Below the pieces are notes generated by a model. The model did not search any database. It was not told the origin of the DNA and worked only from the letters and a program-made list of their open reading frames with translations. A stretch of DNA of 64,000 nucleotides from assembly GCF_964194155.1 (NCBI RefSeq), contig NC_135905.1:10850001-10914000 (forward strand). The letters run 5' to 3'. Below are positions 10,901 through 63,800 of this stretch, piece after piece. The stretch comes from Cetorhinus maximus. Its lineage: Eukaryota. How positions within the stretch are numbered: position 1 is the first letter of the stretch; each line of letters opens with the position of its first letter. The position numbers were made by a program, and so were the translations under genes.

Positions 10901-11332
10901 AGGGGGAGGCCTTCAGACACTTAACTGGCCGCTCTAGGGCCTTCCCCAAAATTGATGACCCCTGTGGTAGAAGTATCGCCGGCTGAGAGCTGCTGGTCAA
11001 TCAGAGGCCAGCAGCTTGTCATTGCCACCAGCACTAGTGGCCGTTGGCAGCACTGCACCCACCTGAGGCCCAGGATTGCAGAGGGACCTCAGGCCACAGA
11101 TGAGTAATGGGTGTCTGTCAGTGGCCACCCCACTGCCTCATGTTGGGTACCTCTATCATCGGTCACATAGTGCCTGATAGCAAGGCCCTTCCCCCCACTT
11201 ACCTGGGAGGCCCCTGGTAAACCAGAGAGATTTTGCTGGGCAGCCTTCCAATGGCATGGGTTATCCGGGCGGCCTCCATTTAATCACTGAGCTACCACTA
11301 AATTGTGTGTTTGGTAGAAAGGGTCGAGTTGC

Positions 11333-11627
11333 TCAGCCACCGAATCCGGTGTTTCAGAGCGTACACCGCATCCATAGCAGTGACTATCTTGCGCTTGGCG
11401 TGTTCAGTGTAGGTGGCAGCATCCCTGATCACATTCTCCAGGAAATCCTTCAGCACCCCACGAGTCTCCTCATGGATCAAACCAGAGATCTGCTTGACAC
11501 CGCCATAGCGAGCCAGACTGCGGGTTGCCGGTTCGGTGATGCCCTGGGTATTATCACAAAGCATTTTGCGGTGTCACTTTGCTCTGCCTTTACCCAGTCT
11601 TTTGCCTCCTTTCCTTCTGCCAGACAT
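11333..11627 (-). pseudogene. Histone H4 pseudogene (orphon) in ANTXR-like intron 1
   Basis: [91 protein letters not shown]. Stop at codon 18, many substitutions, and a deletion in the C-terminal RQGRTLY segment before GGATTCGGTGGCTGA. Confidence 0.92.
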
Positions 11628-12501
11628 GATGATTCTTCACTCGGATCACCGCAGAATATGTGGGATCGGGGATAATGGGCGTCAGTTGGCTTATTAATAA
11701 TCCTAATTGACATTTCGCTGCCACTGGCTAGGAGTCCTGCGAAAGCCCCTTCCACCTTCCCATTTAATCAGTAAAGGTTCTCCCATTGCCAGGAGACTGA
11801 CGTGGGCCTTCTCCCATGATTAAGTGGGCCCCACTGCCATAGTTCCAACCTCAACGGGCTGCATGAAATCCAGCCTGTCAGAACCATGGAGGGACAGAAG
11901 GAGAAAGTAAGAGAAAAAGACAGGATGAGAAAAATTATGTCAGGTTTTTATATTTTGTAAGTTACAGAGTTACAACAGCAATCTTTTTCATTTGTTTATG
12001 CTGATAAGTCAAAAACAATTTATAATGTTAATACATTTACTTCAACAACTATGAAAAATATTTATGTTCCACCAGTTGTTAAGGAAAACACCATTTATTT
12101 TCCAGGAGCCAATCAAAATAAGCTTAAACCACTGCCTCTTGGGAGCTGTTTTGCAAAATCTTTAAAATTCTTTGCACTGGAGATGTGTACATCTTCCCCA
12201 CTTCCATAACCCAGTAAAACCCTCCCATTGCAACAGTGTTATTTGACTCAACATGAGTAACCAAGGGATGGATATCTGCTGGTGTATCTATATTAAAATG
12301 TTATGTGCGTGAGTGCATTTTGTGCTTCACATGGTAGTTGGCACACATTTTATTTGCAAATTTTGCTTCACATCATATCTAAATTGCTTAAAACTCATAT
12401 TGAGAAGCCAGCAAATCATTACTGAACAAGTAGAATTTTTTGAAAATGCTTTTGGGTACCATCTTGAATTGTCACTGGGAATCTTGAAACACTGAGGCTG
12501 A

Positions 12502-13901: not shown

Positions 13902-16841
13902 GAAGCTAACAGTGGAGTGGGACATCTTGGACAGCAACTTCAAGATTTTCACATTCAAACATGCATCTGTTTTCCCCTGAGATTGCTGTACGATTTGTAC
14001 GGAAATTAAGGTCAGCATTGTTTGCCTCACTATTATTTTGAAAAGTAAAATTCTAGACCATTATGAACACAGTATTTCATTTTTAGCAATGAAAAATCTT
14101 CAACATCAAGAATTATTTTTGGATACAATCAATGAATTGAAACAAAAACTTTTGAAGGTTACACTCTACTCTTAGCATGTGTGGATTAACAAGCCATCAG
14201 TAGATGTTATTTTACAATCTCCATCAGTTTCTCCTGTTTATATATACTGTTATTTTGCATGTTCATGTAAGGACTCAAGTCAAATACTTGGTCAAATTTA
14301 TTCTCAAACCAGAAAAATAATAAATCCTACACTTAAAAACCTTTAGAATGGGCATAATGCATTGAGTAGCAAATGAAATGTGCAGGCTTAAAATGTTATG
14401 AACTAGCATTTCCTACATGGATTGCACTATACGAGGGAACAACCTGACTTTTTTTTCTGAAGGCTCAAGTGTAGTTTTTAGAGCCAGCAGCAGCATTTTG
14501 GTACTTCACCCAATTGGCCATTCAACATATGTAACCATAGACAATGAGTATGATAATTGACCACAAGGAACCATTGCAAACAAGTCTGATTTTGTCCTCG
14601 CCTCACATTCAGACAATATGTGGATGCATTTCCACAGCTACTGCTCTGCTGTTGTAACTTTACAGAAATTCATCCTCTCTCACAATCTAGCAGGGATTAG
14701 TAGTTTGCAATCAGAAACAATAATAATTTTGGCCAATTTATTTGCCCTCCTTATCCCAGGAATACTGAGGCTAATGACATCTCCTTGATTTTGACATGTT
14801 CAAGAACAGAAACTTGCATTTATATAGCGCCTTATAGAAAAACATCCCAAGGTACTTCACAAAGGTACAGGAAAAAGATGGACACTGAGGCAAAGAAGGC
14901 AATGTTATGATATTGATCAAAGAATTGAGTTTTGAAGAAAGTCTTAAAGGGAGATGGAAGATCACATTGGGCAGCATACAAACCAAAGATATGAGATGAT
15001 CTATTTCCATTTCCAAAAGATGCTTCTAAAGGGAAGTACAGTGCATTGAAGGCTGACTGGAGATATATATTTGAACCTCCACTCTGCTTAGTTTTCAACT
15101 TTCCCATGCTGTATGGAGCCACATTTCACTGGCTGGAAGCCACACATTTTGTTTAAAGAGTGAGTGAAAAATCATCTATAATATTTCCATCCAGATCCAC
15201 TTAACAGCTCATTAAAAGCACCACTCTTGCTAGGAGAGGGAGAGTCAAGGAAATTAGGTATTTGGAGTGCTCACTCACAAACAATAGGGAAGGCTATACA
15301 AACCATTCTCCCCCCACCGACCACCCAATTCCACCCTGCTAACCCAGGACATATTCTCCTCTGCCTCCCTGCAAGAGGGCTGGCCTTAAAAACTTTACAT
15401 ATTTTTGGGGTTCCCAGCAACTTCTCTGGCCTGGAATCCATGCTGCAGCTTAGAGCCAGCTATGTGGTATCTCGTGTGCCTCACCTCACTGAGCATACCA
15501 TCCTCGTCCAATACTCCTGGTCCCAGCTGGGCCACTGGAGCAGAGATTCCAGGGAAAGGGAATCCCATCCCTGGATCCATTCACTGAGGACATTTGTCTT
15601 CTAAATGGCAGGACAAGATTCCAGCCCTTTAAAGATAAATTGGGACGGGTGGGAACCGGATATAACTTGGTCTCCACTGTGTTTGAGTCATCTCCATCAG
15701 TCTCCTTCCAGAATTAAAGTAGGAGGCTGGATGATCATCTATAAACAAATATGGGCAACACAATGCTTCAAAAAAAGAGAAAATTTTGAACATTTTATGA
15801 TTAACTACTCAATTAATGGTTTCACTTTTAAAAAAAAATTGAATGTCAAGTTTTATATACATTTAAAAGTGAAATAACTAATTTCTTGGATTTTAAACAT
15901 AACTTTTAACATTCCCTATCTATCTGCCAGCTAAATAGGATATTGCTACTCGAAACGTCCAGGGAGAGGAGAAAGGATGTGAGCTCAGTGAATCCTTTCT
16001 TTGTGCTGCCTGGCTCATATGCAGTTTCCAAGAAACACAAGCTGAAAATGGCCAGTTTCTCATACCCTGTTGCTGAACTCAACTCACTTTCTCATAGGAA
16101 CCATAACCTCTGCCGTATATGCACACAAGAATTTTTAACAGCCTGAGGTTGATTCTGTCTTATGCTCCGAAACCATCTGACACGTATGGTAATAAAAGCA
16201 AAAATGCTGGAAATACACAGCAAGTCAGTCAAGCTCAGATAGAGAAAGACAGATTAATGCTTTAGCAAAGAGATATTAACCTGATCAACTGCTATGCATT
16301 TTCAGAAGTTTTACTTTATTTCGGATTTCCAGGATTGCCTTTTATTTTTTGCTTTTTATTAAATCACATACCTTAGCACCTTTCCTCTTCAAAATTGGAA
16401 AATGAGAAGTTTTACTATGATGTATTTCTGAATTTTTAACAATTCACATTGACATTGTGGTGACAAGGCAGGCTATTTCACAGTGTGTCAGTGTCTTGTT
16501 TGAGTCCCTTTGTCACTCACCAGTGCAGACGTCTCTCTTACTCAGCACCGGGATACATATCTGGCTCACCCAGTAGCAGTGTTATTCTCTTAGTGTCAAA
16601 TGTCTATCTCTCACTGCCAGTACCAGAGTATCTCTCTCTCTCATACACAATCATCACCTCCTTTTTAATCTAGGCTGATATTCCAGGGCAATACTGAAGG
16701 ATTGTTCATCATCAGAGGTGTAGAACAGACTTTAAGTCGAGGCCAGTCTGGTAGTTTAGGATGATGTTAAAGTCTCTTGGTATGGGCGTATCCATCATCA
16801 GCATTACTCCCTCCACAAACATCACTGGACAGATTAGCAGG

Positions 16842-17117
16842 TAACTAATTTTATTTAATAAAAACAGAAAGTGCTGGAAAAACTCAGCAGGTCTGGCAGC
16901 ATCTGTGGAGAGAGAAACAGAGATACCATTTCGAGTCCAATATGACTCTTCTGAGGAACTGGAAACAGTTCTGAAGAAGTCATATTGGAGTTGAAGCGTT
17001 AACTCTGTTCCTCTCTCCACAGTTGCTGCCAGACCCACTGAGTTTTTACAAGCACTTTGTTTTTATTTCAGATCTCCAGCATCTGCAGTATTTTGCTTTT
17101 ATTAACTCATTTTATTT
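16842..17117. mobile_element. Penelope-type short element, fold-back (inverted) insertion with TSD
   Basis: Inverted arms (aaaacagaaagtgctgg...ctcagcaggtctggcagc / gctgccagacccactgag...). Flanking repeat taactaattttattt (16842-16856) / taactcattttattt (17103-17117). Degenerate hammerhead cores in the centre. Confidence 0.75.
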
Positions 17118-17858: not shown

Positions 17859-18079
17859 TCAGTGCCCATTCCACTCTAATTCAATGCTTCTCACTCAGTA
17901 ATAGGGTTTTTACTCAATCAGTGCCAGTGTGAGGAGCCTATTCACTCAGTGCCAATGTGCCTCTCATTCACTGCCCCTGTCGATATTTATTGCACTCTGA
18001 CTCAGCACCAGGGACTCTTGCTCTGTTAAAGGAGTCCACATGCATTGTCGTGCCCAGGCCACTCTGTTACTGACAGTGT

Positions 18080-19112
18080 ATCTCACCCTGTGCCAGTACC
18101 TCACACCCACTAGCTGGGCACATCGAGCCAAGAGCCTCTCATCCACTGACTATATGCTTCCAACCGAATGTCAGTATCTCTCACCCACTGGGTATATCCA
18201 GCCCAGTGCCGGTATCTTTCACCCACAGGCTTGTTGTAACTCAAGAGTGCCAGTATCTCTCACCCACTGGCTGCACATATCCACCCCAGTGCCAATATCA
18301 CTCACCCACTGGCTGATGTATTCTCACCCAATACTGGTTTCTCTTACCCACTAGGTGTATCCAGTCCAGTGCATCCCACCCACTGGGTATCCAGTCGAGT
18401 GCCAGTGTCTCCCACCCACTGGCTGGGTGTATCCAGTCCAGTGCCAGTATCTCCTAACCACTGGGTGTTTCCAGCCCAGTGCCACTGTCTTTCCCCACTG
18501 ACTGGGTGTATCCAACCCAGTGCCAGTGTTTCCCACCCACTGGCTAAGTGTATCCAGCCAAGTGCCAATATCACTCACCCACTGGTATTCTCAACCAGTG
18601 CTAGTATCTCTTACCCACTAAGTGTATCCAGTTCAGTGCCAGTATCTGTCACCTACTAGGTAGGTGAATCCAGTCCAGTCCTCCCACCAACTGGACAGCT
18701 GTATCCAGTCCAGTGCCTCCCACCCACTGGGTATATCCAGTGTGCCAGCATCTCCCACCCACTGGGTGTACCCAGTCCTCTGCCTCCCATCCACTGGGTG
18801 TATCCAGTCCTGTGCCAGTATCTCCCACCCACTGGGTGTATCCCTTGAGCCAGTATCTCCCACCCACTGGGTATATCCAGTCCTGTGCCAGTATCTCTCA
18901 CCCACTGGGTGTATCCCTTGAGCCAGTATCTCCCACCCACTGGGTGTATCCAGTCCTGTGCCAGTATCTCTCACCCACTGGGTGTATCCAGTCCTGTGCC
19001 AGTATCTCTCACCCATTGGGTGTATCCAGTCGGGTGCTAGCGTCTCCCACCCACCGCCCTGGTGCAGCCAGCCCAGCGCCAGTGTCTCCCCACCCACTGG
19101 GCGTATCCAGCG
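18080..19112. repeat. Minisatellite with 35-38 bp unit (gccagtatctcccacccactgggtgtatccagtcctgt)
   Basis: Directly visible tandem units; they generate the repetitive ORFs at 18344-19120. Confidence 0.92.
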
Positions 19113-31879: not shown

Positions 31880-32480
31880 CATGAGCATATAATCGAGGCT
31901 GACACTCTGTGGAATACCGAGGAAGTGCTGCACAGTCGGAGGGTCTGTTTTACGGATGGGACATTAAACTTAGGTTCCCCTATTGACCCCATGAAAATAT
32001 TTGGAAGACGAGTAGAGGAATCCTCCCTCGTGCCTCGAACAATGTTAATGCATTAATTAATGTCACTAAAAACAAATTATCTGTTCATTTTCTTACTTCT
32101 CATGTTTGTCCTCTCACTTATCCCCTCATTTTATTTTAATCTCATTTTATTTCCTCGTTTATTTTCTCATTTTCTTCCGTCGCAAATTGGCAGTTGGGAC
32201 TCCTACAATGAGTGTGACTATGCTTTACAACAGTGACAACATTTCGAAAGTACTTAGCAGGTCTGGCAGCAACTGTGGAAAGAGAAACAGGGTTAACGTT
32301 TCGAGTCTGTATGACCCTCCTTCTTCCGAAACGTTAACTCTTGTTTCTCTCTCCACAGACGCTGCCAGACCTGCTGAGTTTTTCCAGCATTTTGTTTCAG
32401 ATTTCCAGCATCCGCAGTATTTTGCTTTTATTTCAAAAGTACTTCATGGGCTGTAAAGCGCTTTGAGGGCATGGCAGGCA
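31880..32480 (+). mobile_element. Degenerate DeuSINE copy in PRDM8-like intron 2
   Basis: gtgctgcacagtcggaggg...ggatgggacattaaac...caaattggc...aaagtacttcatgggctgtaaagcgcttt. Confidence 0.6.
32241..32444. mobile_element. Penelope-type fold-back element inserted in a DeuSINE copy
   Basis: Inverted arms around cgaaacgttaac; TSD atttcgaaagtactt / atttcaaaagtactt. Confidence 0.75.
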
Positions 32481-32603
32481 GGATACACATTATTCCTCTT
32501 ATCTACTTTGTGAAGGAAATATGGATGCGATGAGATGCATTGCAGCGGTACATGGTTAACTGCATTTTATTTATATCTCTCTCTCTCTCTCTCGCTGTGT
32601 TAG

Positions 32604-33787
32604 CCTTCAGGTGCGTGGACTGTGACCAGGAACTGAAATATGAGAATCCGTACCTGGCCCACGTTCGATTCCTGTGCGGTAAGAGGAAAGACTATCTCGC
32701 CTGGAGAGACTTTCAGGCCCCCGGGCTTGGTCACAACGCTCTGTTTAAAGAGCCGTACAAGATCACCGAGGTCAAGGACAAGGAGAGGGTGACCAACTTT
32801 CACAGGATCGCCCATGACCTGGAGCACTCCAAGAAGAAGCCTGGCGGGCAGGACGAGGGGCGATCCTTGACGGAGCGGAGCTCCAGCAAGAGGAAGCAGG
32901 ATGGAGGGGAGGAGGACAAAATCAGGAAAACAGTTTTGCTGGAAAAAACAAACAATTTGGTCTTCGAGCAGGGCGGCATTTCCAAAGAAGACACCAGCGT
33001 CTGCCCGGCCCTTGCAGTTTCCGTTTGGAAACTCAACTCGGACAAGTTCCTGCTGAAGAAGGACTCGGCGCCACACAACACGAGTGCGTTTACCGAGGTT
33101 CGGCGCCTGCGAGAAAAGGGTAAAGCTGAGAAAACGGAGGGCGGAGGCAAAGAGGGCGCCCCTGACCTGGCCAGGAAGGTGGGTCTGACAACAGGCGTGG
33201 TTCTCAGCTCCACCGGCAGCGCCTTCTCTTCCGTGCTGCCTTCGAGTGCCAGGGAAGAACAGAAAAGCGCGTTCTGCCAGCCGAACAGACGGACAGTCGA
33301 GGGGGGGTCTTCCATGCTCCTGGCCCACGCCCTCCACGCCCACGCCGACTGCGCTCGGGATTTACCTGAGTCCATCGCTTCCAGTCAGCTCCACGCCAAC
33401 CTGCTGGGGTCCAAATTCATCAGCGCCGACCTCAGCAATTCCCACATACTGCACACGAGCGTCACCGCCAACAGCCCGTTTTTGTACAGCACCGACATGT
33501 GGCCCAAGCCCGTGGGAGTCCAGCTGCAGTCCACCTCCTCACTGACTCTGCTGCCCCCGTCCTACACCTCGTTTGCTGTCTCGGCTCAGAATTGGTGCGC
33601 GAAATGCAACGCGTCCTTTCGAATGACTTCTGACCTGGTCTTTCACATGAGGTCGCATCACAAAAAGGAATACGCAGCCGACTACCTGAGCCAGCGAAGG
33701 AGGGAGGAAAAATTGACATGTCCAATCTGTAATGAATTCTTTAGGGAGCGCCATCATCTGTCGCGGCACATGACATCTCACAATTGA
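32604..33787 (+). CDS. ZNF488: PRDM8-like/ZNF488 coding exon 3 (atypical C2HC-type knuckle and two C-terminal C2H2 fingers)
   Basis: Acceptor (ct)n...gtgttag| is phase 1 and in frame with ORF 32540..33787. FRCVDC...YLAHVRFLC at the start; QNWCAKCNASFRMTSDLVFHMRSHHK and LTCPICNEFFRERHHLSRHMTSHN* are PRDM8/ZNF488 signature fingers. Joined CDS is 1635 nt (544 aa). Confidence 0.92.
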
Positions 33788-35468: not shown

Positions 35469-35641
35469 TAACTTGCAATTATGCAACATAAAGCTCTGAA
35501 GGAGGGTCATACAGACTCGAAACGTTAACTCTGTTTCTCTCTCCACAGGTGTTGCAGGTCTGTTGAGTATTTCCAGCATTTCCTGTTTTAATTTCATATC
35601 TCCAGCATCCTCAGTATTTCGCTTTTATATTAACTTACAAT
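35469..35641 (+). mobile_element. Penelope-type short element
   Basis: ctgaaggagggtcatacagactcgaaacgttaactctgtttctctctccacag...gcttttat; TSD-like taacttgcaat / taacttacaat. Confidence 0.7.
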
Positions 35642-36750: not shown

Positions 36751-39700
36751 ATATAGAGCCATAGAGTTATACAGCACAGAAACAGGCCCTATGTGTCTGT
36801 GCTGGCCATCACGCACCTATCTATTCTAATAGATGTGGCTGGTAAAATGTGAAATTATACTGGCCACCATTATTGACTGAAAAGCAGGAGGGGAGATGAA
36901 GGTAACAATTGGCAACAGCATTTGGAATCATGAATTGTCTGTGATGATGTAATGTAACAATAAAGAGAATTAGAACTATTAGTGATAATATGTTTCAAGA
37001 TAGGCCTGCTCTCTAAAATGCATCTGGTTCACTGAGTGTGTCACTAAGAAGCTGGTGTATTTTGTTCTCATGTTTTTGCTTTCCGACAGCACTGACCCTT
37101 TCTCTGATATTAACACATTCTGCTACTTTGCTTTCAGACAGTGCTGACCTTTATTCTGCTATTAACACCTACTCTGGACCAAAGCTTTAGATTTTAATGC
37201 TATCTTTACCACTCTCTTTGTTTTGTGTTCCATGACCTCTTTGTCATTTAATTTTCCCCACCCCCTAACCTATCCCTGACTTTTAATCCACCTGACATCC
37301 CCCTCCCTCCCTTCTAAACAGTATAAAGCCTATCACATTTCTACCTCTTCAATTCTGAAGAAGCATTATATTGGACTGAACGTTAACTCTCTCCACAGGT
37401 GCTACCAGACCGCATATTTAAGACCGAGATAGATAGGTTCTTGATTAGTAAGGGGATCAATGGTTACGGGGAGAAGGCGGGAGAATGGGGTTGAGAAACT
37501 TATCAGCCATGATTGAATGGCGGAGCAGACTCGATGGGCCAAATGGCCTAATTTCTGCTCCTATGTCTTATGGTCTGATGAGTTTTTCCAGCATTTTCTG
37601 TTTTTACTTCCAGTTCACTGATGCCTTTTAAGGAAGGAAATCTACCATCCTTACCCGGTCTGGCCTACACATGACCCCAGATCCACAGTAACAGTGGTTG
37701 ATTCTTAACTGTCCTCTGAAATGGCCTAGCAAGCCACTCAGTTCAAGGCCAATTAGGGATGGACAACAAATGCAGCCATCCTTTAAGAGATTAAATTGTT
37801 TTAAAAATCATGAATTAAACTGTAAATCTATTAAGTGGAGGAGCTCCAGTGGTGTTACTGGCAGGTTAAGAAGGGGATAGGACACCGGGTTCTGTGTCTC
37901 TTTTTCCCTCCCAAACTGGTTGGATTGCCTAGCCTCAAGGGACTGAAGTGGGGGAGGGGGAAGCTAACCTCAATTGGGTTACTGGGAACTAACGGGCAGC
38001 GAGGAAAGCAGAACTGGGACACAGTCCATGGGCTTCCTGAGTCTAGACTTTGGAAAACCAGGCATCAATGTGCTGTAATATGGAGCTACAAGTAATTACT
38101 TCCAGGATCACAAAGCAATACACACGCTTTCAAGCAGCACTTATTAAAAGCTGAAACTCGAAATCAAGAAGAACACCAGATAAATCCTGGAACATTTAGT
38201 AGGTCAGGAAACATCTACCACGAAACGTCAGTTTCTCTCCTTCCGTTCTTAAAAGCTTCCGGACTCCCATCTTTGGCGAGGACTTCCGTGGAGGCTGCAA
38301 CCCGATTGGCCAACGTCTCCTGCAATGTGATTGGGCAGAAACTTCTAGAGCGGTTTTGCGCGTTTTGATTGGTGAATCACAAAAACAGAAACTCACGCAT
38401 TCGAAAGGGAAAAAACAATATTTAGCCAATCAAAAAGGAGAGATTAGCACCTCCAACTGAGAAGACGGACCACAAAGTTCACAACAAGCAAGTAATATTT
38501 TATTATCTGGATATTAAAGAGCAACACACCTTCGACCGACACTTTCGTTATGGTCTGAATGTTAAATGGCAAACTGTAGCGATAAGTGCCCGTTATACTC
38601 AATTCCAGGTTCCTGCGCTAATTTTTTTTCTCTTATAAATTACAGAATGCTATTTAGATTTAAATATCTGTTTGCTGAAGAAATTTGATAGACTTATGTT
38701 TACAGTTTGGCTCCTCACTTCTAGTTATTACTTATCGACTTCGCAAACGGGGAATTATTGTGGACTTTAATCCCGTGTTACTTTAGTCTATCGTATTAAA
38801 ATGAAGAATTAAACACCACACTGATATCCAAGTAAAGGCCCATGGTGACACAGGAGTGGCAGCAGCCAAGACCGGACATAGTGAAGTCGTGAGGTGTGAC
38901 CCGCCCCCCGCTCTCCCCTGGTAGGCTTGCCCCGACCCGTTGGCACCAAATCCTACCCAATTCCAGGCAATGCTAATCGTGGACAAGTTAAACCGTGGAC
39001 AAACCATTTGGAAAAGGCGCTCAGGGTCATCTGGCCCGGATGATTCAGCTTGTACCAAACCCGGAGGAGTTAGCCAGTTTATGGGTGACCAGGAAAGATG
39101 AATTTATACCAACCCTGTCCTAAACGTTCACTTTCAAGGGATTAAAACGATGATCTTGGTGCACTCGGCTCCAGCCATCTCTAGCCCTTTGCTTTTCTTA
39201 TTCGCTCATGGGATGTGGGCGTCACTGGCTAGGCCAGCATTTATTGCCCATCCCCAGTTGCCCTTGTTCAGAGGGCATTTTAAGAGTCAATCACATTGCT
39301 GTGGGGTTGGAGTCACATGTAGGCCAGACCAAGTAGGGATGGCAGATTTCCTTCCCTAAAGGGACATTCGTGAACTAAATGGTTTTTTTTTACGACAATC
39401 GGCAACGGTTTTGTGATCACCGTCAGACTTTTAATTCCAGATTTTGATTGAATTCGAATTTTAGTTAAGGTTGTTTTATTCACGTTTTGATTCAACGTGT
39501 TCAACTCTTTTCTCAGAGCCGAAAGTTAACAGTTCGTTGCCTGGATTCTATAAACGTGTTTCACATTAATATGTGTAACTATAGATACCATTTTAAGGAT
39601 ATTGAATTTGTTTTAATAGGAATGATAGAAATTAGAGTTGCTTTTAGGCCCAGACACTGATTAACACACCACAGCAGATCAAACCTTTTTCTCCAAATCT

Positions 39701-40176: not shown

Positions 40177-40755
40177 ATTCTATTTGAAGGTAAAAGCAAA
40201 ATACTGCCGGTGCTGGAAATCTGAATCAAAAACAGAAAATGCTGGAAAAACTCAGCAGGTCTGACAGCATCTGTGGAGAGAGAAACAGAGTTGACCTTGA
40301 GATCAAAAGGCAGCTGCAAGACTCCATCTGGCTCCACAGTGAAAAAAAAAAACCTTGTTTTGAATTCCTAAGGTGAAAATGCTTTGCCTGGTGTTTGGTT
40401 AACTCTATGGGTTGCTGTTGCCTTAGTGGAGATTAGTTTGGGAATTTGTTACAAGTTATTTGCAGCCATGTGTGTATATTTTAACCTGTGTAAATTAATA
40501 AAATGTTTCAATTAGTTTCATGTAAAGCCTCGCGAACTGGTGGTCTGATTCCCGAATTTAGAGTGGCATCTCAAACATAGCACTTAAAATTATAGGTTAT
40601 GACAGTTGTTTAAAGTTTCCCTCCGGGGAATTTTAAATGACTCCGCTTTTCCAACTGCATCGGTCATAACAATTCAACTCTGTTTCTCTCTCCACGGATA
40701 CTGTCAGACCTGCTGAGTTTTTCCAGCATTTTCTATTTTTAATTCTATTTGAAGG
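40177..40755. mobile_element. Penelope-type fold-back element enclosing an LTR 3' fragment
   Basis: Perfect 14-bp TSD attctatttgaagg (40177-40190 and 40742-40755). Inverted arms at about 40191-40297 and 40672-40741. Interior about 40300-40671 ends in CATAACA and resembles the LTR at 45543-46436. Confidence 0.75.
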
Positions 40756-50039: not shown

Positions 50040-50660
50040 TTAGCAGCAGGAGTAGGCCATTCGGCCCTTCAAGCCTACTCTGCTATTCAATAAGGTCATG
50101 GCTGATCTGGTTGTGGTCTCAACTCCACTTTCCTATCTGCCCCTCATAACCCATGACTCCCTTGTCTATCAAAAATCTATATAACTCAGCCTCGAATAAG
50201 TTCAAAGACCCAGTCTCCACTGCTTTCTGGGGAAGAGAATTCCACACATTAACGATCCCCAGAGAGAAATAATTTCTCCTCATCTCCATCTTAAAAGGGA
50301 GGCCTCTTATTCTTAAACTGCGTCCCCAAGTTCTAGTCTCCCCTACAAGTGGAAATATCCTCCCAGTATCTACCCTCATGTCTCAATGAGATCACCCCCC
50401 CATCCTTCTAAACTCCAATGAGTACAGGCCCAACCTGATCAACCTTTCTTCATAGGATAAGCCCCTCAACCCAGGAATGAGTCAAGTGAACCTTCTCTGA
50501 ACTGCTTGGAACACAATTACATCCTTTTTTAAATAAGGAGACCAAAACTGCACTCACTATTCCAGATGTGGTCTCACCGAAGCCCTGGACAGCTGCAGAA
50601 AAACTCCCCCCCCCCACCCCCACTTTTATATTCCATTCCCCTGGCAATAAACGCCAAATA
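50040..50660 (-). mobile_element. CR1 LINE 3' fragment in RBP3 intron 1
   Basis: ORF 50119..50379 (FPLVGETRT...MRRNYFS...VWNSLPQKAVE); CR1 tail ggccattcggccc. Confidence 0.85.
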
Positions 50661-50744
50661 GCGAGTACATTGCTTCATTTTCTTAAGTGGGGGCACGTTT
50701 CGCTTCCGAAAAGGGCGTCGCCGAGGAGGGGGAGTTAAACCTAC

Positions 50745-53729
50745 CGGCATCGGAACCACACCGGGTATGTGATCCTTTGAGTTTTCGGGGATGTGCGCTA
50801 CTTTGAGATGTTTGTCGCCCGACAGTTTCTGCAGGTCCTCTGACAATTGCTGGGCCAGCTCAGCCTCAGAGTTAATGATGTTGTACCTCCCCTGGCTGAC
50901 CAGCTCGGCGATCTGTCCAGCCACCCCCGCGCCGGTTTCAGCGAAGGCGTAGTTGTCGGCGACCAGCTTCCCGGCCGTTCGGACAATCCAGGGCACTTTG
51001 GCCCGAAGCTCGATGATGCCCAGTGCAACATCCAGGGCTTCGTTGGCTTGAACCGTGACGTCCGGCTCGGCTCCGGAGACACTCCACACCTTCCCGGTGA
51101 CCGCGCTGAGGACAACCTGGTTGGGAATGGACAGGTAGAGGTAGCTATTTGCTATCCGGTAAGTGCCCACGGACAAAGCCCCTCCTATGGTGGGCTCCCC
51201 GATCACTGTGGCCCTGTTCAGCTCCCTCATGGCCCTGGTGAATGCCTCTGCCGCAGAACCTGTGATGTGACTGGTTAGGATGTAGATGTCCTTATGAGAG
51301 CCGTACCTCTGACCCATTACCTGGGGCATTGTCCATATCTCTGACCTTGACAGAGTGGAGCGGTCAAGCACTGTGTAGAGGTGTCGGACAGGCTCCGGAC
51401 CAAAGAAATAAGAGCACAAAATGGGGATGGCAGTCGAATAGCCACCAATGTTGTATCTCATGTCAATGATTAAGGTGTCGGTGTTGACCAGCTTGTTCCA
51501 CACTTGCTCCAGTAGCTGGGGCCCAATGACCTTGATGATCTCCGCGTCGGCCATCATGTCAAAGCGCAGGTAGCCCACATTGTGGGGCAGCACCTCCACT
51601 TTGAAGAGGGCGTGAATGATGTAGCTGAGCTCTTCGGGCGTGGGGATCTTCACCGCCTGCTCCTCCGGCACGTCGGGTTCGGCGTCGCTGTAGAAAACGT
51701 GAAGCCGGTGGTCGCCTGAAATCTCCTTCAGGTCCGAGGTCAACTGGGAGGCCAGGGACTCATAGTCCACGGCCGAGCGATAGGAGCCTTCCAGCCACTT
51801 GGTGCTGAGCACCGCGCTGACCCTGGTGGCCACCTCTTGGAGGGCGTAGTGGACATTTAAAAGACTCCCCGTGTCCTCCACCAGCTTGACCACTTCGGCA
51901 TGGAAGACTATAATGTCCTTCGCCTTCTCCAGCGCCTCCTCGGCCAAGACGATGGCATCAGGGACCACCCCACCGCCCAGCCAATACTCTCCATTGTTGT
52001 CCAAGAAGTTGATGAAGGGGATGGTGAGAAGCAGGTTGGTGCTGTCGATTGCAAAGGACCTGGAGTGGAGGAGGGTGCCCGAGGTGATCTCCCCGACCAC
52101 AGTGGCCCGTCTCAGCGACTGCATCAAGTAGGCGAACTCTTCGGCTGCAGTGGCGGTGCGGTGGCTGGTCAGCACGTAGATGCCCCTCTTCGACCCGTAG
52201 GAGGCGCCCCCCGGGTCGGGGAGGGTGGAGAACTCGGTGCTGGCGTTGGTCAGCCGGTTGTAGACGGTGAAGAAGAGGACGGCCGGCGCCTGCTCCTGGA
52301 AGTGCGACAGCAGCAGCGAGACGGCGGCCGAGCTCCCGCCCGTGTTGAAGCGCAAGTCGATGATCAGGTGGTCGGTGCCGGCTATGGGCCCCCAGACCTG
52401 GGCGGCCAGGGAAGGGCTGAGCCCCGGCAGGGCAGCGCCGTCGGGGAAGCGGTCGAATCGGAAGTAGCCGATGTTGCCCGGCAGAATCGCCACCCGGAGC
52501 GGGGTTCCCGCCGGGTGCTGGATTGGGACGGCCTCGCTCGGCGGGGCGGCTGGGGGGACCTGGGGCTCCGACCTGACCCTGATCGTGAGCCTGGGGTCCT
52601 CGCAGACGGCCTGGAGCTCATAGTTGAGCTTGGCCGCCAGGTCCTGCTCCGAGACCACGGGCGAGTAGGCGACCTTGGAGACCTGGCGGGCCAGGGCGGG
52701 GACGTGGTCCACGAAGGAGTAATAGTCGCCCAGCAGCTGGGTGACCCTCCGGACCACACCGGGCACCGCCTTCCTCACGGCCAGGATGGAGGTGGCTTTC
52801 TCCAGCCCCTGGTCTGCCTTGACCAGCACCGCCGGGAAGACGCCGTTCACCTCCCAGCTCTGCCCGGTGATGGGGCTGATCGACCTGGAGAGCGGCACCG
52901 TGATGAAGAAGCCGGTGGAGCCGATGCGGAACTTCTGGATGTTCAGCGAGCCTCCCGCCGTCCTCTCCCCCACCAACAGCCCCCTGTCCAAGTGCTTGAG
53001 GATGTAGGCTACGTCTTCCGCCACCCCCCGGGTGTGCCGGCTGATGAGGACCAGGACATCTTTGCCCTTCCCGTACCTCTCGCCCAGCAGGCTGGGCAGG
53101 GTCCACACCTCCTGGGTGGAATTGGACGGGCGGTCGTAGATGGAGTCGAGGTGAATTTTGAGGTCAGCGTCGCAGAAGTAGGAGATGACAAAGGGGATCC
53201 CAGAGACTTTGCCACTGTCACTGTACCGCAGGTCGAGGATCAAAGCGTCCGTGCTGACTATGTACTTCCAAATCTTGTCCACCAGAGCCGGGCCGACCAC
53301 TTTGGCCACCTCCTCTTCGAAGATGTGGTCAATTCTCAAGTAGCCCACGTTGTGCTGCAGGATTTCGAATTTGATGGAGTGCTGGACCAGGTCCATCAGC
53401 ATCTCCGGGTTTGGGAGAGGGACATCCACCGTCTCGATGGGAGAGCCCCCCGGCTCGTAGGAGACCAGCAGCCGAGGGTCATTCAGGGCCCCCTGGACCC
53501 CGGCGGTCAACACCGCGGCCAGCGTCTGGGGGTCGGCCACGTGCAGGATTTCCTCGCTCTGGTTGGCTTGCCTGATGGCTTCTTTCATCCCCACCAAGTT
53601 TTCCGGGAAGCAGTAATTGTCCAGCAGGACTTCGGCCATGTCCAGCATGAGCGTGAACTGGAACATCTGAGCCGCCGGGGCGGAGCTGAATAACAGAACC
53701 GTCAGCCAAAAGCATGATGCCCCAGCCAT
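50745..53729 (-). CDS. RBP3: Interphotoreceptor retinoid-binding protein (IRBP), exon 1 (signal peptide, modules 1-3 and start of module 4)
   Basis: ORF 50574..53729 begins MAGASCFWLTVLL...MAEVLLDNYCFPENL and has three repeats of NxGYxRxD / IDxR / GExT. Donor after VVPMP at CCG|gtaggt (50744); 2985 nt, phase 0. Confidence 0.97.
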
Positions 53730-53869: not shown

Positions 53870-53945
53870 CCGATTTAAATCCACAGAACCGCATCAACCA
53901 GATTACAGCCATTCATTGTCACTTAAACGTTTAATCTCATTAGGC
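53870..53945 (-). promoter_or_regulatory. RBP3 proximal promoter with CRX/OTX and PCE-1/Ret-1-like homeodomain sites
   Basis: The minus strand reads CTAATGAGATTAAA (53943-53930), a second TAATCT near 53905-53900 and a TATA-like GATTTAAAT, 150-215 bp upstream of the ATG. Photoreceptor promoters use such sites; function is inferred. Confidence 0.55.
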
Positions 53946-54151
53946 TGGAGCGCCTCAGCCAAGCGGCGTGGGCCATCCTGTAAAAAATAAAGCGACACAA
54001 AAATTAACCTTCGCCCCAACAGGGGTGTGGGTCCAAGATTTCTGAGCCCTTTGGCGATCTGGAACTCGAGCTATGAGCGCCAAACCAATGCAGGGTCAGG
54101 GAGGGAGAGAGAGAGAGAGAGAAATTCCAGGCAGAACCTGTCGAATTTGTG

Positions 54152-54430
54152 ATATAAAAGCAGAAAATGCTGAAAAAAAACCTCAGCAGGTCTAGCAGCA
54201 GCTGCGGAGGGAGAGCTCCGGTGACGGACACACCAATTTATGTCTTATGGAGTCGAAACACTTCAAAATATAAAACAGTCCAAACTCAATGTACTAAATA
54301 CGGATCGATAAACAGTTCATTAATGCCACAAAAACAGAAAATGCTGAGAAAACTCAGCAGGTCTGGCAGCATCTGTGGAGAGAGAGACACAACTAACGTT
54401 TCGAGCTCGTATGACTCTTCTTCAGAGTTT
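54152..54430 (-). mobile_element. Two partial Penelope-type element copies upstream of RBP3
   Basis: aaaagcagaaaatgctg...ctcagcaggtct(a/g)gcagc occurs twice (about 54155 and 54330); the second copy carries the hammerhead motif. Confidence 0.7.
54391..54429 (-). ncRNA. Minimal type-I hammerhead ribozyme motif in a Penelope-type element
   Basis: Minus strand AACT-CTGAAGA-A-GAGT-catacga-GCTC-GAAA-CG-TT-AGTT: stem I AACT/AGTT, core CUGANGA...GAAA, stem II GAGT/GCTC, loopless palindromic stem III (ACGT). Activity is not demonstrated. Confidence 0.6.
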
Positions 54431-57389
54431 ATTAATGACCTTGCCACTCCGATATTAATTCTCCTTGGTTGTATCCCGAAGCGATTACAATTGCCCCAGT
54501 ACATTGCATGTGGAGTCTTACTGAGCAGTAACCTTGTGGCCTTTTCCATTCTATTCTAAGCGGCCCAGGTTTCCCTCACTTGCAGAAGGTAAATGAAATC
54601 TGTTGTGACTTTAATCCCCAGCACAAGATGTGATTAACTTTTTTTAACACGGCCGTGCGACATATGGCCGTGTCTTACCATTGGGTTCAGCCAATAGGAG
54701 GCACTTGTTGGACAGGGACGCTAGCAGCCCAGGCTGCTTATCGCTTTAGCAGCCATTAGTCGGGGTCAGTGTAACCAAAGCGAAAGGAGCGATAACAACT
54801 AATACTTAAATACTTAACATCGGGTGCATCGAAGTAGCCAATTATGGAACCATATTAGTTTTAAATGTGATGAAGATTACACTTCCTGTAATGACCATTT
54901 TGAAGTCTTTGTTACGTTCTTTACATTGTGTTGATGCACCTCAGAGCTCGATTTGATCTACGCAGTAAATCTGAATGTCATTGCAATGGCCATTTGGAAA
55001 CATTTTGTAACCTTTTAGATATTTTACGAACAAAGCATGTTTCTGCAAAATCAAGGCTTTAAGTGCAATAAAGATTTAGACGCTTGGTCGAGCGTTTTGG
55101 TATCAGTCAATGACATGAGGTCAGCCCTGAGAGGGACCAGGTCAGTTACTGAGCTCTGTAACTTCCACCCTCACTGGCTGTAAGAAAAATGCGCCCCTCT
55201 TTTATTTAAATTGCTTTTTAAAATGTTTGCGTTACCTAATATTTTATTTCTTTATGCCGATGACCCCAATCAACATTAGCAGTATTTATCAGCAGGGCCC
55301 TGCAATCCTACACTGCTGAGGGGGAATGAAATACTGGGAGATTGAAATTCAAATGGAAAAGGTTGGAGTTTATTTGCTTCGTCAGGATCTTGGAAACAGA
55401 ATCCACGAGCCTTATTCCAAATGGGAGAGGCCTTGGTTGGGACACTCTTTGCAGTGTTAATCCCGAGGATTAACTAATTTAGAGCACGCTCTGCCATTAT
55501 TGGGGGTTTTAACACGTCTTTAACAGTTTTTTAAAAAATCATTACATCATTACATTCTGTGAACTTGTTAAATCTTAGAAAATATTATCCAGCACAGAGG
55601 GGTTGGGGTGCGGGGGAATCCCAACACTCGACCCATACAGTGGAGTATTTAACTTTGCTTTGGGTCTGATGTAGTTTCACGATAGAGAATTTTCCCCTAC
55701 GGTACCTTTTAAGGAGGGTGTTAATTAATGGTTGCTGGCGGAAAGTTGCTGGGTGGCAACAATTCATTGAAAACCTGATCAGAAATTCACGGGCTGCTTT
55801 CTATTCCTTCGAAGATGTGGAAACGTTAACTTTGCTTCCCTCTCCACAGCCGCTGCCGGACCTGCTGAGTTTTTCCAGCCTTTTCTCTTTTTATTTCAGA
55901 TTGACAGCGCCCCCCGCAGTCTTTTGCTTTTATCTTAAGTTGTGGAAAGGTTTGGAGAAAGTTATAACCGAAAGTCCAACTGGTTTCAAGCCCATGAGTT
56001 ATCTCCAGTGGCATTTAACCTAGTTTTAGGCTATACACCTCCCCACTTAAAAGATGAAATCCCGGATTTAAGAATATTCCTTAAAAGTCACTGGTTATTT
56101 GAAACTTTGCTCATCCAATTTTGACAGTAAGGCCTTCAACAAAAGCGCAGTGATATGATATGCTTTCAAACTTGTGTTCATTTAGAAAAAGTACATATTC
56201 TAAGGCTTTTTAATTGAAATAACATAATGCATGTGCTCCGTGTCGTTAACATTTGCTGTTTAATGAAAAGTAACATATCATTTGTCATTAAGAGTTACGT
56301 CAACGTATCCATTTATTACCTCGGTATCGGATTATTTTGAAGAAACCACCTTAAAAGTAGCAAAGCAATTTGCAGGAGCACAGTTTATGGCTTTCCCGCA
56401 TTATAAATATTTCATTAAACACAGATTTCTAGTTACACTGAATCGATGCTATTATATGTGCAATTGGGGTTTATCTGTTTTAACGTGGTCCACAAGGATA
56501 ATGTATTGCCGAGCTATATGTTTTTTTAAAATATGAAATATGATTGTACGAAGAATAATGAGGGAACATTTCTTCGCGTCTCATTCCCAACTCACCCAGA
56601 TTACCACAGGATGGCGCTGTCTTCGCAGTTCTCTCTAGTTGACTCCCTCAACTCAAATTGGAGAGCGTCAGAATAGGAGTTTACTTTGGGAATGTAGATT
56701 TACTGTACGGTATTCTGTAGTGTATATAGTCAATTAACAAATCCTAAAATTCATCATTATTGAAAACATGTAAATATTACAACGATTGTAAATGCGATGT
56801 GACAAACCTCTAATTTTGCCATTTTATTTAAATCCATAAATGTCAAGTCACTTTTGCACACTGGATACTGACCCACATTTAATTACAATAATTTTCCATG
56901 TAATTCCCGCATAACCTTGCTAGACATTTCCCTCCTCTGATGTTTCAAATTACTAATTTTATTTGGAACAAGGGTTGTCTCAGTTTTGCGTTTCTCTGTT
57001 ATAAAAAGGAACGGGTAATGAGCCGGTAAGTTAAAATCACACCTGCCCGCCCCAAAACTCCAGCCTCACTAAGTGCGATTAAAACACACTGCGACGTTTA
57101 TTGATGCAGACAAAAACTTAACTAAAGCAAACTACTCTTGTGCATCTCTGGCAGGGAGACTTCAGAACTTGTAATTGCAGGCACGAAATGAGGAAAGCCA
57201 ACACCATAATTCGACTTTAAAACCGGCCAAAAAGGCGAGCTCCTTATTTGTAAACTGTTTAGTATTTATGCCGACGATTTTTATTGAGCGCAGGTGTTAC
57301 ATGGTGGCGGAGCTGGCAAAATTAAGGAAAGCATTATTTGTTTTGTGAGTAATATAACGGCTACTTTACAATGTGTAAGACTGGGTGTG

Positions 57390-57643
57390 ACTACAGTCAA
57401 AAATACCTGGAAAAACTCAGCAAGTCTGGCAGCATCTGCGGAGAGAAACACAGTTAACGTTTCGAGTCCGAATGACCCTTCAACAGAACTGTTCTGTTGA
57501 AGGGTCATTCGGACTCGAAACGTTAACTGTGTTCCTCTCCGCAATTGCTGCCAGACTTGCTGAGTTTTTCCAGGTATTTTTGTTTTTGTTTTGGATTTCC
57601 AGCATCCGCAGTTTTTTTTTGCTTTTATGTCACTACAGTCAAA
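57390..57643. mobile_element. Penelope-type near-perfect fold-back element with 12-bp TSD
   Basis: Palindrome centred at 57490 with arms of about 90 bp; TSD actacagtcaaa (57390-57401 and 57632-57643). Confidence 0.8.
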
Positions 57644-57923: not shown

Positions 57924-58535
57924 TAGAAAGACTTGCATTTATACAGTACTTTTCACAACCACCACATGTCTCAAAGCACTTTACAGCCAATGAGGCACGT
58001 TTGAAGTGTAGCCACAGTTGTAATCTAGGAAATGTGGCAGCCAATTTGCACACAGCAAGCTCCCACAGACAGCAGTGTTATAATGGCCAGATAATCTGCT
58101 TTTGCTCTCTTATCTTTAGCTCTGAAGAAATGTCATAGGGACTCGAAACGTTAACCCTGTCTTTCTCTCCGCAGATGCTGTTAGACCTGCTGAGTTTTTC
58201 CAGCATTTTCTGTTTTTGTTTCAGATTTCCAGCGTCTGCAGTATTTTGCTTTTATCTGCTTTTGTCATGTTGCTGGGAGGGGGATAAATATTAGTCAGGA
58301 CACTGGGATAATTCCCGTGCTCTTTGTGAAATAGTGCCTTTGGAATCTTTTACATCCACCTGAGCAGACAGATGAGCCCTCGTTTTAATGGTTTATCTGA
58401 AAGACAGCGCTTCGGACAGCGCAGCGCTCCCTCAGTACTGCACTGGAGTGTCAGCCTTGATTTTTGTGCTCTAGCCCTGGAGTCGGCCTTAAACCTGGAA
58501 GCTTGTGACACAGAGACAAGAGGCACAACTGACAC
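57924..58535 (-). mobile_element. DeuSINE copy interrupted by a Penelope-type element
   Basis: Collinear with 36291-36750. Confidence 0.7.
58094..58264 (+). mobile_element. Penelope-type short element inserted in a DeuSINE copy
   Basis: ctgaagaaatgtcatagggactcgaaacgttaac...gcttttat; TSD atctgcttttg on both sides. Confidence 0.75.
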
Positions 58536-60445: not shown

Positions 60446-60827
60446 TCATTTGCTGGGGTATCCTGTCTTCTTGGGCAGCGGCACGGCCTGGATGTTGGGC
60501 AGGACCCCACCCTGGGCTATGATGACCTCTCCCGGCAGCTTGTTGAGCTCCTCGTCATTGTGGATGGCGAGCTGCAGGTGGTGGGGGATGATGCAGGTCT
60601 TCTTGTTGTCCCAGGCTGCGTTGCCAGCCAGATCGAGGATCTCGGCCGTCAGGGACTGGAGGACGGTGGCCAAGTAGACGGGGGCTCTGGCCCCAACACG
60701 CTCGGGCATAGTGACCTTTGCACAGCAGCTGGTGGATACGGCCAACAGGGAACTGGAGACTGGCTCTGGAGGAGCGAGTCTTGGCCTTGGTGCACCCTTT
60801 GCCTCCACTTTTACCGTGACCGGGCAT
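60446..60827 (-). pseudogene. Histone H2A pseudogene (orphon)
   Basis: [41 protein letters not shown], a frameshift near 60705, then [15 protein letters not shown]...NDEELNKL...[22 protein letters not shown]-to-H/C/W changes are typical of CpG decay. Confidence 0.93.
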
Positions 60828-63800
60828 CTTGTTGCTGCCCCTGCTAAAAATCTTCACCAACGTTCAAAAGTGAAGCTGTTCCCATGCGCCTTTGTCCTTT
60901 TGGGTGCTAGAAGACAGTGGTTTGGCAGGTGCTGCTGATAAAGACTTAATGAGCTACTGTTTCGCATCCTGAGGCTAATATATGATGCAGTGATAGAAAG
61001 TGGAAAGGAAGGGGTGTTTTAGCATGAGGATGGGATCCAGTCAAGCGGACTGCTTTGCCATGTAAGTTGTCAGGCTTTTGTTACAGCAGCACCCATCCAG
61101 ACATCGGAAACGATTCCGCCACACACTTGGTAGTTCAAAGCTACGACTCTACCCCCCAGAAAGCCATTGTGACAAGGCCAACTGATAATTTCAAATGATT
61201 GATAAATGTTTGGCAGTCACAGAAATTAAGGGTCGAGTTAATACTAGCGAGACAGGTTTGATGGGCTGAATGGTCTACTCTTGTTCATATATTCCTATCA
61301 CACTTCTGACTTGTGCCTTGTAGTTCCATCGACAGCAGGGTTTTAGATGCCATGGACCATCCCATAATGGTGCATTTGCATTAAATGCAATAATGTGTTG
61401 ATATATATCTTGTTCCTAGACTGTTTTATATAGGTTCTCATAGGGAAGGAGCCAAAGACAGGTATTTTGACTTGGTAAAGGGCTGTTGCATTATCCTAAT
61501 AAGGTTTGTCTTTGTAAAGGGCTCAAATAAACCAAACAACACCTACAAAAAGAATGATTAGCAGATAGTGAAATAATGAATGAAACAGAAATGGCAGGAT
61601 TCAGCTTGAGGAATGAATGATACACCTGTGCTGACTGACAATGGAAATAGGGGAAAAAAGGGAAAGGAAGACCTCAGCAAAGAAAACAGTCAAGTTTGGT
61701 CAGAGTTTGCTGAGATCGGAAATGAGCCATGATTTCTATAGAAATAGGGATGAGCGAAAATGCCCATACATTTACTGTCAAATATTCTGATACACAATTT
61801 ATACCCAACAGAAGCACTTCAGTGTCCTCATTCATTTAGCAAGCCATTTGATTCTTCTAATCATTTTTAAAAGTAGTTTTTTTCCCTGCAGAAGGTGCAT
61901 CCACCTCTCCATTTGAATCTAATCAGTGTGACCTGGCATCAAGGAATATACACCACATTCCTTTTGTAAATATGAAGTGTGACCAACTCCATAGTGAAGC
62001 ACACTTTGTTATAATGAAATGTTACTCTGTACCTTGTATTATTGAATACATCGTAAATATAAATGTAATCACACTCTAAAATGCACAAGGCAGTAACACT
62101 ATGAAGATGGTACAACATGTTAATGGATAAGATATTATGTAATCATTCATCTTGCGTTACCAAAATAGAAGGGTCTACGGGCCATGACACCAAACTTGGT
62201 GATAAACAAGCAAAGTTCCTGAATTCAGGGTAGCAACGATTTATCGGCTCTCAGTTAGTCTATTGTGTATCCCATAGCAATCCTTGTTTGGACACACACA
62301 TGGCCGCTCATTCACTGTCGCTGGGTCAAAATCCTGGGACTCCCTTCCTAACAGCACTGTGGGTGTACCTACACCACATGGACTGCGGTGGTTCAAGAAG
62401 GCAGCTCACCACCACCTTCTCAAGGACAATTAAGGATGGGCAATAAATGCTGGCCCAGCCAGCGAAGCCCACATCCCACGAATTCATTTTTAAAAATCAT
62501 GGATACTGTACTTCCATTAATTCTTAAATACTGCTGTCTACCTTTGTTCTGTTCAGTGAGCATCTATATCAATACTGGACATCTTAAAGTTTTGGGATGA
62601 TGTATTTCCTTATTTGTCTGTAGTGAAGATATTATTAAGAAATTGTATGCGAGTTAAATGAGAGGACATAAAGCTTATGTGCTCAGAATCGATAAGCCTG
62701 TCTGCAGTGAATGCAACAGAAATCTCAATGAGATGCTGCACAGTTGGGTAAGCTGTGATCAAAGAGTTAGGGTCGAAACTAAATACAGGATGTGATCTAC
62801 ATCCTTCTCTGATGAATTTACAATTGTTTGACTCTTAGGTCTACTGGTTGAGCAGGAAAAGATCCAGGCATGTTTAACAAACTGCTAAATGTGGTATCAG
62901 GTAGAAGTCCGATGCCTGACGCAGGTGCTGATTGATACCGGGGGGAATTAAGACACAGGCACTAGAGTAAATGGAATGAAGAGGCACATCAGTTGGATGC
63001 TCTGTAACATGACACAGGAGCAGGTGGGGCTGAAAGTGATCCTGGGCTGAACATTACAGGTTCTAAATAGTGCACGATGCTTCTTTAATGAACAACAAAG
63101 GTTCACCAAGGGGGGAAAAAAAATTGTTAATAGTTTCAAAACGCAGCATGGTCAGAAAAATTAAAACTGAAATAGGAATGAAAATAAAAAAGAGAAATCT
63201 CTGGAAATATCTTGTAAATTATTCAACATTGAAAAGGGAAATCTATTTAATATTTCAGCAGAATCACCGCAGGTCTGCCATTGCTCTGCAGGAGTGTTTC
63301 CCTATTTAGAAATGATCACAACATATGATACATGGTAATTATCGTAGTCTTCTGCATTTAGGGTTATGGCATCAGGATGTGTTTGCACCATAACCGCAGC
63401 TTTGCACGGATGCTGATGTTATGGTGCTGCTCCAACCGGAATCCGGACCAAAGTAGAGTGACACTCCTCGGTGGAGCTCTTCCCAACCCACCTCCCTTCA
63501 GTGACAGCTTGGATCTTGAAATTCAATTTGCAACTGCACAAATTTTACCATTGGTGTGAAGCTGAAACCACTACATGGTGACACTAAAACTCGCCGTGTG
63601 AAAATACTGTTTATCTCTGCGGTCCCCTCCTAGAATTGGGTTAAAACCGTATAGGGGCAAAGGCTGCCTCAGAGCTACTGGTGAAAAGTAACAATGAAAT
63701 TCTGCCTTCTGGATCATGTGCCTGGCAACATATGGACAACAACAACACAGGCCCTTGGTGCTAGCAACAACTTTATTGTCCTTTACTTTATTATCTCCTA

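Follow-up and report, generated by a model that had tools for sequence, protein, structure and literature searches.

A worn Penelope-type hammerhead in a probable pseudo-LTR stub upstream of RBP3 in Cetorhinus maximus

The 64,000-nucleotide stretch of the Cetorhinus maximus genome analysed here (the window) contains, at 54391..54429 on the minus strand, a genuine but worn copy of the hammerhead motif known from Penelope elements. The copy lies in a short stub that is, with high confidence, a truncated pseudo-LTR (pLTR) of a Neptune-type Penelope-like retroelement (PLE), an old insertion that is inert at its site; the counterpoint to inertness is that the motif retains every core base and a paired stem I, unlike most old copies. 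What appears to be new here concerns the family: its younger members seem to have altered a normally fixed core letter, with the predicted motif otherwise kept.

The hammerhead and the stub that carries it

The features at the site are as follows.
54391..54429, minus strand: minimal type-I hammerhead, from sequence reading and helix energies
54328..54425, minus strand: Penelope pLTR stub, a profile match running from C3 of the hammerhead to ~97 bases further on
54426..54437, minus strand: target-site duplication, 5' copy, 12 bases, 11/12 identical to the 3' copy
54314..54325, minus strand: target-site duplication, 3' copy, pairing with 54426..54437

Read from 54429 to 54391, the minus strand is AACT CTGAAGA A GAGT CATACGA GCTC GAAA CG TT AGTT, identical to the string given in the preliminary description, and the claim that this is a type-I minimal hammerhead of the Penelope kind, derived from a pLTR, stands: core, extra A, palindrome and family link are all present. 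The minimal hammerhead (min-HHR) core (C3 U4 G5 A6 N7 G8 A9 / G12 A13 A14, A15.1-U16.1, H17) is complete, reading CUGAAGA with an extra A after A9, then GAAA, with U17; stem I (AACU/AGUU, 4 bp) is fully paired; and the palindromic ACGU is loopless, without helix III, alongside a G10.1-C11.1 pair. Stem II (GAGU/GCUC) includes one G-U pair and has lost the fifth pair of the family, at -1.2 kcal/mol vs -4.8 in its kin; for the helices as a whole, the energy is -3.2 kcal/mol, whereas three intact copies range from -6.8 to -8.5. The predicted cut falls between 54395 and 54394; a GUU site is cut less well than GUC. Single-strand folding of the monomer gave no hammerhead fold, and z-scores for five copies ranged from 0.19 to -0.59, a method that is uninformative for a dimer-type motif; an Rfam scan of the window returned no hammerhead model match at E<=1, only hairpin look-alikes.

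How does this motif compare with its described relatives? Metazoan PLE min-HHRs lie in pLTRs and have been reported from the fish elements Xena, Poseidon and Neptune (PMC4209133). The shark family resembles them in being type-I with no helix III, a palindromic 15.2-16.2, an extra base between 9 and 10.1, a G10.1-C11.1 pair and a helix I of 4-5 bp, and in occurring mostly as single motifs from truncated elements; it differs in its stem II, which has 5 bp vs 7-8 bp in Schistosoma, in that U17 is common, and in that the core variant described in that source is U3-A8, not a pyrimidine at position 6. As monomers, motifs of this kind failed to cleave, and as dimers they did so weakly (PMC4209133). 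On sequence grounds, the shark family has the testable features of the Penelope min-HHR class. The searched supplement of PMC4209133 names no shark, and a literature search found no paper on Penelope hammerheads of cartilaginous fish; Lunse et al. 2017 or the unsearched supplement of PMC4209133 may list shark motifs.

The stub is 98 bases long, has the tail-less 3' end type and differs from the older-class majority at 10/102 aligned positions (~10% diverged). The 11/12 identity of its flanking duplication was equalled by 8/5,000 random pairs from the window. Its 5' junction is bridged by contigs of two other organisms at ~4-5% difference; therefore, the insertion is old. Contigs from sequencing runs presumed to be RNA span the stub region, though they may be DNA and carry no strand or end information.

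Stem I had been presented as covarying across the family, through a compensatory swap between AACT/AGTT at this site and AGTT/AACT in a copy near 16968. The latter does carry that stem I, but its GAAA box reads GAAG and its stem II is broken, and genome-wide counts contradict the claim: exact motifs read AGYT/AACT in 5,185 copies, AACT/AACT in 235, AGYT/AGTT in 2 and AACT/AGTT in 2, the 54391..54429 copy among them, so the swapped pairing occurs in only 2/5,424. This double change was seen twice vs 0.17 times expected under independence (11 times expectation); the Fisher p is 0.011 with the 54391..54429 copy, which had prompted the test, and 0.125 without it, and the second AACT/AGTT copy has no flanks in common with the first. 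In the older subfamily stem I has AGCT in 79/100 among the matches listed (counted by eye), with the usual C-A mismatch. The first base of the element is C3, and the 5' AACT lies inside the 12-base duplication, as the last four bases of 54426..54437; one strand of this stem I is thus probably host DNA. The swap as evidence of covariation is rejected on these counts together with the position of the AACT in duplicated host DNA: it is in all likelihood a private accident, in which one strand is a host AACT copied by the duplication and the other has changed at two bases. The site shows that a target-site duplication is able to mimic a convincing "compensatory swap".

The parent element and its family

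The 3.99-Gb genome was searched with one window copy and 30 loci were taken; homology upstream of the repeat ranged among them from 0 to >1,500 bases, and loci L031-L033, widened to 10 kb, have 2.4-2.8 kb of homology in common. A link to Penelope reverse transcriptase (RT) and GIY-YIG frames, previously only proposed, was found: in L031 and L032 both lie upstream of the repeat in the same sense, with translations matching RT (PF00078, E 3e-5) and GIY-YIG (PF01541, E 3e-4) just under the Pfam curated cut-offs. RT and the C-terminal GIY-YIG occupy adjacent frames of decayed copies, in one sense, ending ~450 bases before the hammerhead, and in the longer copies this interval is untranslated sequence. 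The translations contain a DKG motif and, between RT and the endonuclease (EN) in L031, L032, L033, L055, L061 and L078, a CX4CxxC linker. Linkers of the type CX2-5CxxC are described for Neptune and Nematis and as absent from Poseidon (PMC8557442), and the Poseidon clade was dropped as the source on this character; the parent element is thus putatively of the Neptune type, an assignment made by motif only, and Nematis has the same linker. L032 (C6:152528301-152538300) holds two long element copies, inverted, one with a 590-codon stop-free RT frame.

With Neptune-clade EN+ PLEs (PMC8557442) the element has in common the order of RT and C-terminal GIY-YIG, the DKG motif, the linker and a hammerhead placed close to the 3' end. 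Three further traits described there, truncation from the 5' side, inverted 5' copies and an optional 30-40 base tail, were all found in the shark element. It differs in that the search yielded no full-length tandem copy that was intact; among six 10-kb loci, none had a direct tandem pLTR-ORF-pLTR arrangement. The 3' ends of the copies fall into two classes ~35 bases apart, and close neighbours are head-to-head in 21/29 pairs and on the same strand in 4/29. The two end classes and the head-to-head pairs correspond to the tail and the inverted copy, which are hallmarks of Penelope elements (PMC8557442, PMC11167929), and therefore the short repeats are the pLTR ends of a coding element. PAc, a Poseidon element of Anolis (PMC11167929), is similar in that two RT start points explain its tail, its target is AT-rich and its hammerhead lies in the pLTR; it belongs to another clade. 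Cutting by the PAc hammerhead required the element's protein, and in vitro the element could insert without the hammerhead (PMC11167929).

While the anatomy, family link, duplication and decay of the 54328..54425 stub are observed, its mode of insertion we infer. The element's endonuclease would have nicked AT-rich DNA at the target; reverse transcription would have begun at the inner of the two start points on the 3' side and, on reaching the 5' edge of the hammerhead, would have either stopped or changed template, the AACT of the target being similar there to the AGCT of the element. Within the parent element, cutting would occur only in a dimer of tandem pLTRs or with the aid of the element's protein.

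The genome is rich in such fragments. A profile built from 26 natural copies found 60 pieces in 72 blindly chosen 10-kb stretches (720 kb), or ~83 fragments per Mb, which scales to roughly 300,000 in 3.99 Gb, a rough figure. In the window it found 15 pieces, more than the about 10 copies first listed; of those, the one at 16210 is a weak BLAST match and the one at 38200 was matched by neither search. The view that most copies carry the motif is correct for fragments of it only, as CTGNNGA-N12-22-GAAACGT occurs in just 4/15 pieces. GAAACGTT occurs 9 times in the window vs 1.2 expected (0/100 shuffles), and CTGAAGA alone 13 times vs 11.6 expected, which is chance level. The other family pieces and their states are:
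16857..17102, no strand assigned: older head-to-head pair, both hammerhead cores mutated; contains the copy near 16968
32246..32431, no strand assigned: head-to-head pair, 5' parts of the hammerheads absent
35491..35629, plus strand: stub with A9 changed to G
37301..37610, plus strand: decayed stub of greater length, with another repeat lying inside it
40191..40744: two stubs, 40191-40298 (minus) and 40674-40744 (plus), both starting downstream of the hammerhead core
54145..54213, minus strand: stub without a hammerhead, on the same strand as 54391..54429
55818..55933, plus strand: stub with only GAAACGTT plus the downstream part
57397..57622, no strand assigned: young head-to-head stub pair, arms 97% complementary, both with CUGUUGA core and intact stems
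58109..58255, plus strand: family stub with tail, canonical core, stems I and II broken

The insertions at 57397-57622, 16857-17102 and 32246-32431 are hairpins of two head-to-head stubs each, and the first has an apparent 12-base duplication on its flanks. The interval 38150-38260 has a loose family resemblance only (GAAACGTC), matched neither by BLAST nor by the profile, and a tandem repeat array at 18050-19110 yields repetitive open frames.

Are the short copies merely truncations, or a family in its own right? The preliminary description took them to be non-autonomous pLTR derivatives; the pLTR origin holds, but a separate family is doubtful, as lengths run from ~100 bases to 2.7 kb of one coding element. 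A tRNA-derived SINE was rejected: the window contains 0 tRNA genes, there is no tRNA-like head, and the 5' part of the repeat is the hammerhead plus the element's untranslated region. There is a counter-trend, in that 5' ends pile up at the hammerhead: in the blind stretches and the window, 26/69 copies start within -10..+4 of C3, although profile ends are imprecise and, in a few copies of the older lineage, the apparent start may reflect missing similarity further upstream. Such a pile-up would fit a non-autonomous family that propagates itself, in the manner of a retrozyme or SINE, starts at the hammerhead and does not arise by fresh truncation, and non-LTR retrozymes, which are non-autonomous pLTR derivatives, are reported from one chondrichthyan (bioRxiv 10.64898/2026.07.22.740005). 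Like the shark stubs, vertebrate retrozymes of this kind are short, hammerhead-bearing and pLTR-related; they form tandem arrays (bioRxiv 10.64898/2026.07.22.740005), however, whereas the stubs are solo or head-to-head, with same-strand neighbours as rare as given above and no same-strand motif pair around 54391..54429 of the kind that head-to-tail units with one hammerhead each would give. Moreover, copies start at the 5' edge of stem I and not at the cut site (3/69 within +26..+36), short and long copies have the same lineage marks over a continuous range of lengths, and junctions vary between copies. Self-propagation is thus improbable, and truncation of the coding element is the preferred reading.

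Core position 6, stem II and decay after insertion

In the youngest lineage, core position 6 is U or C (CUGUUGA, CUGCUGA, CUGCCGA), with stems and other core bases intact, in 47,103 exact motifs, compared with 5,185 and 10,521 for the A6 patterns; these search patterns are not equivalent, and exact matching is biased towards young copies. In the blind stretches and the window the older class outnumbers the younger (44 vs 20). When copies are classed by a base outside the ribozyme, a pyrimidine occupies position 6 in 30/31 younger vs 5/51 older copies, and the CpG of stem III is intact in 35/36 vs 33/65. A tree of 50 longer copies, built with the hammerhead left out, places all 30 position-6-variant copies and 2 CUGAUGA rows beyond a 100/99 branch; it is ladder-like, from CUGUUGA to CUGCUGA to CUGCCGA, with a compensatory stem II pair at the tip, an order that depends on a midpoint root and is backed by branch lengths. 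Core position 6 therefore appears to have gone from A to U to C along the youngest lineage, both stems, the remaining core and the palindrome being kept. Position-6 variants are present in the window at 57457-57523. An older family (L171-L199) has a CUGAUGA core, another stem II, A-U at 10.1-11.1 and a 3-base loop.

The closest described case is the A6C hammerhead of phage Bcep176 (PMC3088659, PMC7151607), in which the core position altered in the youngest shark lineage (CUGCUGA, CUGCCGA) is likewise changed and which is slow in Mg2+ and better in Mn2+. That is a single phage motif, whereas the shark form is fixed in thousands of copies, was reached via U6 and sits in a minimal dimer-type motif; the 54391..54429 copy itself keeps the normal A6. 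A literature search found no report of an A6U hammerhead core; Lunse et al. 2017 or the unsearched supplement of PMC4209133 may list position-6 variants. It is possible, if doubtful, that the active lineage is retuning its hammerhead away from catalysis, the fold serving mainly as a protein-binding or RT stop/template-switch signal, with cutting slowed or dependent on protein. Over a third of insertions end at the 5' edge of the motif, and few end at the cut site.

Covariation is found in stem II, at the level of lineages. In natural copies from several lineages, 10.1-11.1 is G-C in 24 and A-U in 12, and 10.4-11.4 is U-A in 32 and C-G in 4. An alignment of 43 natural copies (42 distinct rows), chosen by patterns that leave stem II free, has 90% of its stem cells paired and a covariation of 0.286 vs 0.207 in shuffles; 0/500 shuffles reach it, a test inflated by relatedness among copies, so that the signal amounts to a few lineage-level events and not dozens. 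Double changes in stem I are confined to single rows of this set. The compensatory stem II changes between lineages nevertheless fit selection on the fold in parent elements.

After insertion the picture is one of neutral decay. Among 142 copies not picked by motif, substitutions are as frequent in the core as downstream, both in the older class (51/567 vs 319/3,681, 9.0% vs 8.7%, p 0.81) and in the younger (9/305 vs 65/1,854, 3.0% vs 3.5%, p 0.74). A comparison in which the core seemed better kept than the flank (13/227 vs 162/1,410, p 0.008, uncorrected) was an artefact, the copies having been grouped by core base; the difference disappeared when the classes were defined without reference to the core.

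The RBP3 neighbourhood and what the family offers

Two features lie downstream of the stub on its strand.
50574..53729, minus strand: RBP3/IRBP first coding exon frame (PF11918, E 3e-111), a neighbour outside the element
53870..53940, minus strand: likely RBP3 proximal promoter, from motifs

The motif had been placed sense to RBP3 and ~660 bp upstream of it, and this is accurate: the IRBP/RBP3 frame shares its strand, and the distance to the ATG at 53729 is 662 bases. Motifs of the CRX/OTX type, TAATCT and AGATTA, occur at 53905 and 53937 and a TATA-like motif at 53879; the mammalian IRBP promoter spans -123..+18 and has ATTA-core homeodomain sites (PMC1182371). The motifs at 53879-53937 suggest that RBP3 transcription would start ~520 bases downstream of the hammerhead. 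A bacterial promoter scan gave no match, its model being irrelevant to this host. On one side of RBP3 is a C2H2 zinc-finger gene (32534-33787, plus strand) and on the other a TGF-beta family gene (L038:9029-10000 and L039:482-1066, minus strand), a gene order which we take to resemble ZNF488-RBP3-GDF2. A histone H2A-like frame at 60446-60853 (minus strand) is apparently a decayed copy, and a second possible H2A-like copy lies near 11181-11675 on the opposite strand.

If the core is intact and points towards RBP3, could it have been put to use? Exaptation, in which 54391..54429 would cleave read-through RNA, or RNA from upstream, close to the RBP3 promoter, perhaps by pairing in trans through ACGU with transcribed copies of the family, draws on the orientation, the intact core and the paired stem I, on the retention of the insertion in two other organisms, on the ability of the ACGU palindrome to form a short duplex (-5.5 kcal/mol) and on the domesticated intronic hammerheads of amniotes (PMC6155905). 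Against these, the motif is a lone monomer: the nearby 54145..54213 has no hammerhead and therefore is no possible dimer partner, and a search of the window and of four 10-kb stretches near it (40 kb) found no partner motif on the same strand. The cutting of RBP3 read-through RNA proposed earlier is unlikely because, in addition, stem II is weakened, the motif lies above the likely promoter and outside the probable transcript, and the family decays neutrally; the next same-strand gene upstream, of the TGF-beta family, ends ~28.6 kb away, and at the density of fragments given above one beside any gene is expected. Exaptation is thus very hard to credit, and an old, inert pLTR fragment remains the preferred reading of the stub.

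The 54391..54429 copy itself matters little, as one of the ~300,000 pLTR fragments of a known class. The family is more useful: it would supply age-ordered core variants that are directly assayable, from a lineage that appears to have gone on multiplying after the loss of A6. PMC8557442 and PMC11167929 leave the role of the Penelope hammerhead unsettled; if the retuning of the core is true, these dated natural variants would let that role be tested.
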